Part shown: positions 4,904 to 7,048 of the stretch, one piece after another | How the letters are laid out: each line of letters begins with the position of its first letter | How positions within the stretch are numbered: the first letter of the stretch is position 1 | Source: Myxococcota bacterium | GTDB taxonomy: Bacteria > Myxococcota > XYA12-FULL-58-9 > JALHOP01 | Assembly (NCBI GenBank): GCA_022842935.1 | Contig: JALHOP010000014.1 | Span: forward strand, 58,053 to 122,052 | Direction: 5' to 3' | DNA: 64,000 nucleotides | The notes under the pieces: model-generated | Seen by the model: only the letters and a program-made list of their open reading frames with translations | Database searches by the model: none | Told to the model about the DNA's origin: nothing | Program-made: the position numbers and the translations under genes

Positions 4904-7048
4904 ATGGCAGACAACATCACCGTTCGTACCGGAGACGGGCCCGCCCCAACGGCAGGCACGGACGGGTCTGCCAAGAAGTCGAAGCTCGAGCAGCAGGTCG
5001 AAGCGCTTGGCGAACGCATCAAGCATCGCACGGGACGCGCGGTCGACGACGACGTGTTGCGTGCCATGGTGCTTCGTAAACAGGCGCGCGCCGAACGCGC
5101 CGAGCGCTCCGCCGAATCGCAGCAGACGTACCTCAAGACGACGGCGAATGAGACGCTGCAAGCGCAAAAAACCGACGACAAGGGCACTCTCATCGGCCGG
5201 CCGCGCGAGATGAACACGCCCGACGGGCTCAGTCGCCATCAGCGCCAGCTCGTCACCAGCGACCCCAACGCTCCGACGATCTTGCCACCGGCCACACACC
5301 CGCCGATTACGGCCGAGGCCGCAAGCAATGTGCTCGAGAAGATCTTCAGCTTCTTGAAGCCCGGCTCGGCCGACGCCGCGCCGCTTACCGTCGAGCACTA
5401 CTCCGAGACCTTGGTGCCGCGTGAGCCAACGCAGCCACGCGAATCGAGTGCCGAGGGCGACGCAGGCCACCCAGGCGGTCACCTCGCCGATAGCGGACAG
5501 AATCGCGGCTTGCGATCGGCCGAAGAGAAGCCACAGCGGCCCTTGCCCGAGGGTGGGGAAGGTGCCGACGGAACGGACCCGCCAGCCGACCGACCCACGA
5601 CGACGGGACGGCCGACGACCGGCGAGCGCCCCGAGCGGCCGATTCTCAATCGCCCCACTGCCGGTCAGCCCGCCAACGACGGCCGGCCCCAGAGGCCAGA
5701 CCAAGAAGGTGGACGACCGGTCACGCCGGGCGGAGGCGAGCCGACCGTTCCGCGACCGCCGGCGCAAAACACTATCCACCTGCCGAAGAAGCGCGAGCCC
5801 GAGAAAGGCGAGCAACCGAAGACTCCTACGCACAGCGATGCAACTCCGCTCGGGCGGACGGTCATGGCAAACGCCAAGACGACCGACGCTTCGGGACGGA
5901 CTCCGCTCGGGCAAACGACGCTGGCAACGACGCCGGGGCCAACCGGACCGACACTTCCAACGCGCCCCGTAGGTCCCAACGTCCCGACCGGCACGACGGG
6001 GCCAAACGTACCGACCGGACAGCGACCGGGTTCGTCTGGCGGGAATCTCGGTGGGCCCGTTGCGGGGCGCGGAACGCGCAGCGCGCGACCCATGCCGAAC
6101 GAGACATCGAGTGGCGGCACCACGCTATCGCTGCGTGGCTCACGCTCGGGCCGCACCACACGCGCGACCGACGTCACCACCGAAGCTGCGTCACCGTTCG
6201 TCAACAACGGTGGCGGCTTCGACACGACGACATCGTGGGACGGGATGAACTTCAACTGGGAAGCCTTCTTCGTGAAGTTCATGTTCCAGTTCCAGAAGGA
6301 CGAAGCCGAAGCGCGCCGCCTCATGAAAGAGCTGCGCAACGCGATGCACAAGCTCGCGCAGGAAGGCATCAAAGCGAAGATCGCCCTCGAGAAGATGAAC
6401 CAGGCTTTCGAACGCGCCGAAGCGGCTTTCAAGCTTGGCGACGCCATGAAGGGGGTCATGGACTCAGCACAGCAGGCGGCGCAGCAGCAAGGACAACAAC
6501 AGCAGCCGGGAGCACAGGGGCCGAACGGTCAGCAGCAACCCGGGGCGCAGCCCACTGGACAAACCGACCCGGCCGCGGCCGCCGCCGTTCCTCCCGACGC
6601 CAGTGCGGCGGGTGACGCGCCACCTGGGCAACCCCGGCCGGGACAGCCCGGCCCTGGCCAAACACGTTCCGGCCCGGCACGCCCCGGACAGACCCCCACC
6701 GGCCCGCAGCCGGCGGCCGACCCATCTTCTGAGCCCGCAGCGGCAGCGCCAGATCCCGCGAACGCACCCGGCGGTGATCAACAGCAACCCGGGCAAACCC
6801 GCGGCAATCAACGCGGCCGAGGCCAGGGACAGGGCCAGCAAGACGACCCGAAGATGCCGGGCGGCGGGTTGGTCGGTAACGTATCGGAGCACCTGCGTAC
6901 GGCCATGGAGAAGGCCAACGCCGAGCTCATCTCGTCGGCGCAGCGCGGTGGCTCCGAGATGGATGCGCGCATTCGCTCGACGTACATGCAGGCGCAAGGC
7001 CTCTTCAATCAGATGGTTCAGCTGCTCGCGATGTCACGGTCCAAGTGA
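4904..7048 (+). CDS. Pro/Gln/Gly-rich low-complexity protein (effector- or ruler-like), unknown function
   Basis: 714 aa. RBS GAGGAGG. Long P/T/G/R-rich disordered stretch with short tandem repeats (GPNVPTG x2, TPLG(R/Q)T x2), a central helical block (FFVKFMFQFQKDEAEARRLMKELRNAMHKLAQEGIKAKIALEKMNQAFERAEAAFK) and a poly-Q/PGQ region. Confidence 0.6.
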   Translation: MADNITVRTGDGPAPTAGTDGSAKKSKLEQQVEALGERIKHRTGRAVDDDVLRAMVLRKQARAERAERSAESQQTYLKTTANETLQAQKTDDKGTLIGRPREMNTPDGLSRHQRQLVTSDPNAPTILPPATHPPITAEAASNVLEKIFSFLKPGSADAAPLTVEHYSETLVPREPTQPRESSAEGDAGHPGGHLADSGQNRGLRSAEEKPQRPLPEGGEGADGTDPPADRPTTTGRPTTGERPERPILNRPTAGQPANDGRPQRPDQEGGRPVTPGGGEPTVPRPPAQNTIHLPKKREPEKGEQPKTPTHSDATPLGRTVMANAKTTDASGRTPLGQTTLATTPGPTGPTLPTRPVGPNVPTGTTGPNVPTGQRPGSSGGNLGGPVAGRGTRSARPMPNETSSGGTTLSLRGSRSGRTTRATDVTTEAASPFVNNGGGFDTTTSWDGMNFNWEAFFVKFMFQFQKDEAEARRLMKELRNAMHKLAQEGIKAKIALEKMNQAFERAEAAFKLGDAMKGVMDSAQQAAQQQGQQQQPGAQGPNGQQQPGAQPTGQTDPAAAAAVPPDASAAGDAPPGQPRPGQPGPGQTRSGPARPGQTPTGPQPAADPSSEPAAAAPDPANAPGGDQQQPGQTRGNQRGRGQGQGQQDDPKMPGGGLVGNVSEHLRTAMEKANAELISSAQRGGSEMDARIRSTYMQAQGLFNQMVQLLAMSRSK

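Follow-up and report, generated by a model that had tools for sequence, protein, structure and literature searches.

A previously unannotated modular protein family in the type III secretion translocator cassette of uncultured Myxococcota

What kind of protein is encoded directly behind the translocator genes of a type III secretion system (T3SS) in an uncultured member of the Myxococcota, and why does most of it look low-complexity? The question is raised by a 64,000-nt stretch of Myxococcota DNA (the window), in which chaperone and translocator genes are followed by a gene for a protein of 714 aa, the target of this study (Table 1). A sequence-only reading, made from the letters of the window, had described the protein as Pro/Thr/Gly/Gln-rich with short peptide repeats around one structured helical block, and had proposed a secreted substrate, a Pro-rich effector or a ruler/linker-type protein. 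We found that the target belongs to a previously unannotated protein family, which is fixed within a T3SS translocator cassette of uncultured Myxococcota. As for its role, we tentatively favour a T3SS-exported, translocon-associated accessory protein that carries a membrane-interface aromatic motif. Coordinates are positions within the window and residue numbers refer to the 714-aa protein, unless another locus is named.

A modular family in a constant gene order

A full-length homology search with the target returned 3 proteins, with low-complexity words filling the candidate list. An exhaustive HMMER search of 1.84 billion representatives was then based on a profile of the central block (built from the window protein, P0002 and P0003), and gave 31 proteins at E<=1e-3, 15 of which reached E<=1e-10. 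The relatives were 500-1300 aa long, and those looked up were 'hypothetical proteins' from metagenome-assembled genomes (MAGs) of Myxococcota or 'Deltaproteobacteria'. A Pfam scan of ten relatives revealed no domain, Pfam and NCBIfam scans of the whole target protein gave nothing meaningful, and a PDB sequence search with the single target protein returned nothing below E=1. Matches to DotM_C (0.0037), Saf4_Yju2 and FAM25, obtained in Pfam/NCBIfam scans that included three sub-blocks at E<=10, were below cut-offs and unrelated, and were rejected. The helical block likewise matched no housekeeping family.

Family members are 22-30% identical, yet their gene order is constant: chaperone, translocator(s), minor translocator, family member, and a protein of ~350-376 aa. 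The same order was found in L001, L004, L005 and L009-L013, and L002 shows the upstream part, its contig ending inside the gene. The classical 'Myxo' T3SS of Cystobacterineae has been reported without tip and translocon proteins (PMC3459982), so the translocator cassette of the window is a different situation; in the literature on Myxococcota translocons or injectisomes, nothing was found describing this cassette. As the window shows, a complete chaperone-translocator cassette exists in other, uncultured members of the Myxococcota; it holds two conserved extra genes that are unnamed in databases, one for the modular protein and one for a DMATS-like protein.

The modular structure was predicted with an AlphaFold2 (AF2) run on the 27-sequence family alignment; an earlier 3-sequence run was uninformative, with a predicted local distance difference test score (pLDDT) of 40. 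Helices with pLDDT 70-83 were predicted at residues 27-43, 49-94, 111-119, 137-150, 163-169, 452-530 and 653-713, and residues 178-438 and 533-652 (pLDDT <50) were predicted to be disordered. Since the confident helices lie in three separate stretches, the protein has three structured modules, not one. The single block placed by the sequence-only reading at about residues 440-540 was recovered as the central helix 452-530, with two further modules, N-terminal and C-terminal, beyond it. Across the family the length of the central block stays within 90-96 aa, 23 of the 27 members having exactly 95; the C module covers ~70 aa in the 27-sequence alignment, with the consensus end AQGMINQLxQLLxMSRxx. 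The new family (MADNLTV ... FNWDAFF ... QGMINQLxQLLxMSR) is marked by the order N module, 95-aa block and C module and by a place between the minor translocator and DMATS-like genes, and the target shows both. Defined by three modules, two free spacers and fixed synteny, the family provides an annotation handle for ~30 'hypothetical' proteins.

The target ORF (open reading frame) is a real, selected gene. Four genomes (the window, L004, L005 and L001/P0003) carry it intact, always with the start MADN[IL]TVR and the end ...LAMSRSK. Ratios of nonsynonymous to synonymous substitution (dN/dS, Nei-Gojobori) among the orthologs were 0.17-0.30 for the whole gene, 0.10-0.25 in the conserved modules (N module 0.11-0.25; C module 0.10-0.21) and 0.19-0.42 in the first variable region, spacer 1. 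In the second, region 2, synonymous sites were saturated and lengths differed among the orthologs. The low dN/dS indicates purifying selection, and a pseudogene, which the sequence-only reading had allowed for, is contradicted by values of 0.1-0.3 in a gene that is intact in four genomes. Conserved blocks among the close orthologs were residues 1-180, patches in 285-345, 405-535 and 650-714.

Variable regions and their repeats

The target contains 86 Gly, 82 Ala, 81 Pro, 67 Thr and 57 Gln, together 52% of its residues, and 0 Cys. Every motif quoted in the sequence-only reading was present: the peptide DRPTTTGRPTTGERPERP at residues 229-246, the TPLG(R/Q)T and GPNVPTG pairs, a Q-rich run at residues 518-547 and PGQ repeats at residues 574-603. 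The repeats were also above chance. Against 1000 within-module shuffles, repeated exact peptide 4-mers numbered 31 vs 12.1, 5-mers 8 vs 1.3 and 6-mers 4 vs 0.13, and the shuffles matching the observed 4-, 5- or 6-mer counts were 0/1000.

Low complexity coincides with the two length-variable regions, the modules being fixed in length, so that the term 'linker-type' of the sequence-only reading proved apt for these parts. Spacer 1 is 37-541 aa long across the family (27 sequences; median 87), with 252 aa in the target and 437 aa in P0003; measured over residues 181-404 among the close orthologs, it ranges over 199-410 aa, with 224 vs 410 aa between lineages. Region 2 is 89-830 aa long (median 323; 127 in the target). 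In most relatives it is a charged helical segment of 200-800 aa (E/K/R/D/A/L fraction 0.42-0.64), and its P+G+Q fraction is 0.59 in the target, 0.53 in P0003 and 0.12-0.21 in members outside the clade. The target therefore looks mostly low-complexity because in this clade the two variable regions happen to be P/T/G-rich and Q/P/G-rich, respectively; being confined to two tolerant, lineage-specific regions, the low complexity is not the family-defining core.

The expansions of spacer 1 differ by lineage: 13-aa PQQPTAEKPTTER units in P0003, LPGQP/poly-P in P0018, VAGKQ in P0015 and helical units of ~65 aa in P0009. On this comparison of sequences, several lineages have lengthened spacer 1 independently of one another, each with its own kind of repeat. 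In the P0003 ortholog the units form a tandem array at L001 1694-2045 (39 nt x 9, 87% matches, Tandem Repeats Finder (TRF) score 471). DNA-level repeats in the target gene are minor: TRF gave two rows (scores 36-37), and three families of 21-28 nt occur in two copies each. The earlier idea that nucleotide repeats could support length variation thus held between lineages, through the 39-nt array of the ortholog, and not for the weak DNA repeats of the target gene itself. In the sister assembly, MAG AS-MESO-OLR.103, the ortholog is split over the end of contig L007 and the start of contig L006, inside the 39-nt/13-aa array, the copy number of which is not resolvable there by short reads.

Length variation between conserved ends recalls a molecular ruler or tape measure, in which the spacers would set needle or filament length. 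Like the secreted rulers SctP/YscP/FliK, the family has conserved ends and a length-variable, repeat-prone, Pro/Gln-rich middle, with repeat expansions in several lineages, and the family profile matched the phage tape-measure protein 8vjh_Q at E 2.4e-21. This match was rejected: the alignment is gappy (accuracy 0.64) and lies within the helical region 2 that is missing from the target, which alone gives no such match, so that coiled-coil composition is its most likely source and not homology. Unlike the rulers, the target has two variable regions around a fixed central block, which is not a ruler layout; Pfam scans of residues 425-714 and 650-714 with a limit as loose as E<=10 gave no match to T3S4 (Flg_hook), the substrate-switching domain at the C-terminus of rulers; and the C-terminus was predicted by AF2 as a single helix (653-713), not an alpha/beta domain. 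Rulers are encoded in the export-apparatus operon, between sctO and sctQ, whereas the target gene is flanked by those of the minor translocator and the DMATS-like protein, and neither the ORFs scanned from the window nor the 10-kb flanks of L005 and L009-L013 revealed an apparatus gene. A ruler is thus very improbable, and this proposal of the sequence-only reading did not stand as family membership.

A further likeness is with the Pro-rich spacers of TonB-type proteins, which are extended (EP)n/(KP)n stretches. The PQQPTAEKPTTER repeats of the P0003 ortholog and the (D/E)RP runs of the target resemble them; however, the target lacks TonB domains and a membrane anchor, and its cellular context differs.

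Another alternative is a translocated effector encoded in the translocator operon, similar to SipA/IpaA or to EspF/TccP/Tarp. Pro-rich disordered motifs (TPLG(R/Q)T, RPxxP-type, GPxVPT) would then engage target-cell proteins, with the helices binding to a target in the cytoskeleton or a membrane. About 55% of the target is predicted to be disordered, and the short motifs of spacer 1 are invariant among the close orthologs; the dN/dS of 0.19-0.42 indicates that this spacer is constrained in sequence and not in composition alone. Like EspF, TccP and Tarp, the family is Pro-rich and disordered and its repeat copy number varies between lineages; the gene of EspF, moreover, closes the LEE4 translocator operon. 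Unlike in these effectors, the repeats are two-copy in the target and not family-wide: the TPLG and GPxVPT motifs are clade-specific and absent from most family members, the spacer 1 of which is 37-130 aa. The tandem Pro-rich units of such effectors carry host-binding motifs; in the target no recognised SH3, WH2 or N-WASP motif was seen, no search aimed at these having been made. Pfam and NCBIfam scans detected no known effector domain.

A cassette-encoded effector would account for the synteny nearly as well as the accessory protein that we favour. The operons sicA-sipBCDA and ipgC-ipaBCDA each end with an effector gene, for SipA and IpaA respectively; these effectors are ~630-690 aa long, hydrophilic and partly disordered. 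Like them, the target is large, hydrophilic, partly disordered, encoded after the translocators of a chaperone-translocator operon and conserved with the operon. Unlike in SipA/IpaA, both termini and a 95-aa aromatic/helical block are conserved and a DMATS-like gene follows; no similarity of sequence, profile or fold to them was found. Both extreme termini and the indel-free 95-aa block are kept across 22-30% identity and locked to the cassette, which is more usual for machinery-associated substrates than for effectors. We regard an effector as the most serious of the alternatives, somewhat less likely than the accessory protein.

Export, the aromatic segment and the DMATS-like partner

For the favoured accessory protein, the following course is proposed. 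The target would be exported by the T3SS as a translocator-class substrate, its N module supplying the export signal together with a PxΦxxP-type site at which the tandem-tetratricopeptide repeat (TPR) class II chaperone of the cassette would bind. After export, the central and C-terminal helices would pair into an elongated coiled coil, and the Trp/Phe-rich segment 445-463 would rest on the target-membrane interface beside the translocon. The disordered spacers would serve as flexible tethers, constrained in their presence and not in sequence or length, and the translationally coupled DMATS-like protein would be an obligate partner, either a chaperone for the aromatic motif or an enzyme modifying it. 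Support falls from the T3SS substrate through the TPR-chaperone client to the aromatic motif at the interface together with the helix coiled coil, and is lowest for the DMATS-like protein as a dedicated partner.

The proposal of a secreted substrate is favoured by context only, namely the chaperone and SseC-type translocator neighbours, the constant order, the lack of a Sec signal and the low Cys content (Cys is absent in 17 of the 27 family members). No hydrophobic stretch or h-region was seen in the first 45 residues of the target, so no Sec/Tat-type signal is apparent, in agreement with the sequence-only reading. The N module would carry both the export signal and the chaperone-binding region. 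Clients of class II chaperones fill the TPR groove with the N-terminal hexapeptide P/VxLxxP (PMC3443056). In the N module PTILPP reads P-x-I-x-x-P, which resembles this motif without strictly matching it; six of the seven minor translocators carry PxLP, likewise not strict P/VxLxxP. Judged by sequence, [PV]xLPP is a candidate chaperone-binding site.

The aromatic segment lies within the central block. W452, within the motif FNW(D/E)AFF, is conserved in at least 90% of the family. Residues 449-463 (NFNWEAFFVKFMFQF) gave an interfacial dG of -4.19 kcal/mol per 15 residues on the Wimley-White scale, the best among four operon proteins, and the best 19-residue octanol dG of the target was -2.05 vs -9.68 and -6.07 in the two major translocators. 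The strong interfacial and weak octanol scores suggest an interface-binding segment that does not span the membrane.

The target shares features with the translocators SctE/SctB (SseC/YopB, SseD/YopD): they belong to one operon, have a PxLP-type motif in the N-terminal part and a hydrophobic segment followed by a long helix, and their amphipathic C-terminal helix has a basic residue at its end. Unlike them, it has no transmembrane hairpin and no profile similarity. Like the SctA tip/filament proteins (LcrV, IpaD/SipD, EspA/SseB), it is hydrophilic and comes from a translocator operon; in SctA proteins one central and one C-terminal helix make up a coiled-coil core. Pfam scans of the target for LcrV, IpaD and EspA and a PDB profile search gave no tip-protein match.

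Several observations weigh against a translocon-associated accessory protein. The case for secretion comes entirely from the neighbouring genes, and a cassette-locked effector such as SipA/IpaA would be expected to give the same synteny. Homology of the target to the upstream translocators was not detectable (BLASTP E>0.7; hhalign 0.04% and 9.5%; no SseC Pfam match), nor to the candidate tip protein described below (hhalign probability 0.24%), and paralogy with either was rejected. The chaperone motif fits loosely, most family members having PxLPP and not PxLxxP. Furthermore, scans of ORFs from the rest of the window, of the genes called up to 10 kb away from four distant relatives and of three ORFs upstream of the L005 cassette found no T3SS apparatus gene. 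If the family is a third translocon component, it would be an addition to the two-translocator-plus-tip model.

The 372-aa partner is coupled to the target by a GTGA overlap at 7045-7048, noted already in the sequence-only reading, in which the stop of the 714-aa gene overlaps the GTG start of the next gene. Of 8 orthologs of the partner, 6 matched DMATS models of Pfam (best 3e-4) as well as of NCBIfam (best 2.1e-5), and its best PDB profile matches were the DMATS prenyltransferases 6zrx/6zry (E 0.017), in a different region collinear with the Pfam match. All DMATS matches were under the curated thresholds (23.6 bits vs 163.85; 17.8-20.6 vs 25). Three strand motifs (K-x-Y, R-x-K-x-Y and N-x-Y) and one Glu are invariant in the partner alignment, which would suit a barrel of the ABBA/indole-prenyltransferase type. 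Background on indole prenyltransferases is found in PMC4786772. Homologs of the partner were confined to this cassette. A prenyltransferase-like gene within a T3SS translocator operon was unexpected.

These matches raise a further alternative, that the target is the protein substrate of the DMATS-like enzyme. W452 would be prenylated before export, and the resulting lipidated T3SS substrate would anchor in the target membrane. The partner abuts or overlaps the family member in 8/8 aligned loci, W452 is conserved as stated above, 6/8 partners match DMATS models, the PDB matches are collinear, and the strand motifs and Glu are invariant. Against this stand the matches far under the curated cut-offs and the passage through the T3SS channel that a prenylated, partly folded substrate would need; to our knowledge, no DMATS-type enzyme prenylates a large protein. 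We consider Trp prenylation improbable. If true, it would yield a lipid-modified translocon accessory protein and add a new kind of protein to the substrates of ABBA/DMATS enzymes, and a partner active on the aromatic motif would offer a new biochemical route for membrane targeting of a secreted bacterial protein.

The cassette and its surroundings

The features of the cassette and of the target protein are listed in Table 1.

Table 1. Cassette genes and elements of the 714-aa protein in the window
Feature	Position	Strand	Residues	Remarks
Tandem-TPR chaperone, 3' part (2 x SycD/LcrH-like)	2-457	+		Cut by window start; TIGR02552 1.4e-14
SseC/YopB-type major translocator 1	583-2046	+		Pfam SseC E 5.9e-9, above gathering score
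Paralogous major translocator 2	2303-3751	+		BLASTP vs translocator 1: 4e-25 and 6e-19
Minor translocator, 347 aa	3793-4836	+		Weak SseD match, one hydrophobic segment, PxLP motif
Shine-Dalgarno-like purine run GAGGAGG	4897-4903	+		Abuts ATG; second GAGG at 4892-4895
Target gene, 714 aa + stop	4904-7048	+	1-714	ATG start, no internal stops; orthologs intact in L001, L004, L005
N module	4904-5437	+	1-178	MADN[IL]TV start; pLDDT 60-83; 175-187 aa in 27/27 members
PTILPP	5273-5290	+	124-129	Family motif [PV]xLPP, nearly invariant; P128 invariant
Spacer 1, P/T/G/R-rich	5438-6193	+	179-430	Predicted disordered, pLDDT <50
TPLGRT and TPLGQT	5843-5917	+	314-319, 333-338	Invariant in all close orthologs; third copy in P0003
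GPNVPTG x2	5972-6019	+	357-363, 366-372	GPxVPT(G/R) pairs kept in orthologs
Central block, PFVNNGGGFDTTTSWDGMNFNWEAFF... then ~79-residue helix	6194-6478	+	431-525	Indel-free; alignment, AF2
Aromatic segment WDGMNFNWEAFFVKFMFQF	6236-6292	+	445-463	Predicted membrane-interface binding, non-spanning
Region 2, Q/P/G/A low-complexity linker	6479-6859	+	526-652	Family alignment
C module, one long helix ending ...AQGLFNQMVQLLAMSRSK	6860-7045	+	653-714	AF2, family alignment
DMATS/ABBA prenyltransferase-like protein, 372 aa	7045-8163	+		Translationally coupled; directly downstream of the family member in 8/8 loci aligned
ECF-type sigma factor	9095-9802	-		Sigma-70 region-4 protein adjoins cassette in most loci examined; not in L013

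The full-length tandem-TPR chaperone has 377 aa at L005 4422-5555 and ~360-377 aa in relatives, with two TPR regions, of which the C-terminal one is SycD/LcrH-like; it resembles two class II chaperones fused into one, which may serve several cassette clients. The two major translocators are 46% identical over both conserved segments. A single major translocator is present in each of four distant cassettes (L009, L011, L012 and L013), which indicates that the duplication is specific to the clade of the target. A promoter scan found nothing, and terminator-like sites were no more than expected from shuffles.

A conserved gene of ~300-395 aa precedes the chaperone (L005 3159-4346, L004 776-1957, L009 4755-5753), with a product ending ...RNKRQMASTAFQNFDQKANQLYNLMASVLKVMNEMR. 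A database match was sought for this protein and none was found; by its lcrV/sseB-like position it is a candidate tip/filament protein.

The extracytoplasmic function (ECF)-type sigma gene beside the cassette bears on one more explanation, a secreted regulator (FlgM/BtrA/ExsE-like) that would hold the adjacent sigma factor inactive until export. Flagellar and Bordetella T3SS are known to have secreted anti-sigma factors, a sigma-70 region-4/ECF-type gene adjoins the cassette in most loci, and the target is mostly disordered with conserved helices. The family proteins, at 500-1300 aa, are far above the size of any known secreted anti-sigma factor, the cassette of L013 has no sigma gene beside it, and a more ordinary candidate is the conserved gene of ~150-224 aa at 8226-8900, downstream of the sigma gene on the same strand. 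A secreted anti-sigma role is therefore the least probable of the explanations considered here, and the translocon-associated accessory protein remains the one that we tentatively prefer.

The minus-strand gene at 8226-8900, directly downstream of the ECF-type sigma gene, has a conserved core of ~150 aa, two invariant Cys and a Pro/Arg-rich N-terminus, and is possibly an anti-sigma factor. The plus-strand ORF at 8079-9083 (334 aa) is probably spurious, the conserved gene there being on the minus strand.

Beyond the cassette, window positions 9095-14562 contain the ECF-type sigma gene, LexA (10023-10721), two ArsA-like ATPases (11448-12485 and 12482-13609) and a 318-aa gene. The same genes in L011, sigma and LexA in L001, and size-matching ORFs in L004/L005 suggest a conserved chromosomal neighbourhood. 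The ORFs scanned elsewhere in the window were housekeeping genes. Among them are the gene of an 806-aa Ser/Thr protein kinase at 16714-19134 (+), and TolB together with a MotA/TolQ/ExbB-family gene at 19915-23466 (-); such ordinary surroundings show that no larger secretion island encloses the cassette. At 51800-57175 (-) a 1791-aa protein with a PT-TG pre-toxin domain (Pfam 3.8e-8) is encoded, which is likely a polymorphic toxin.

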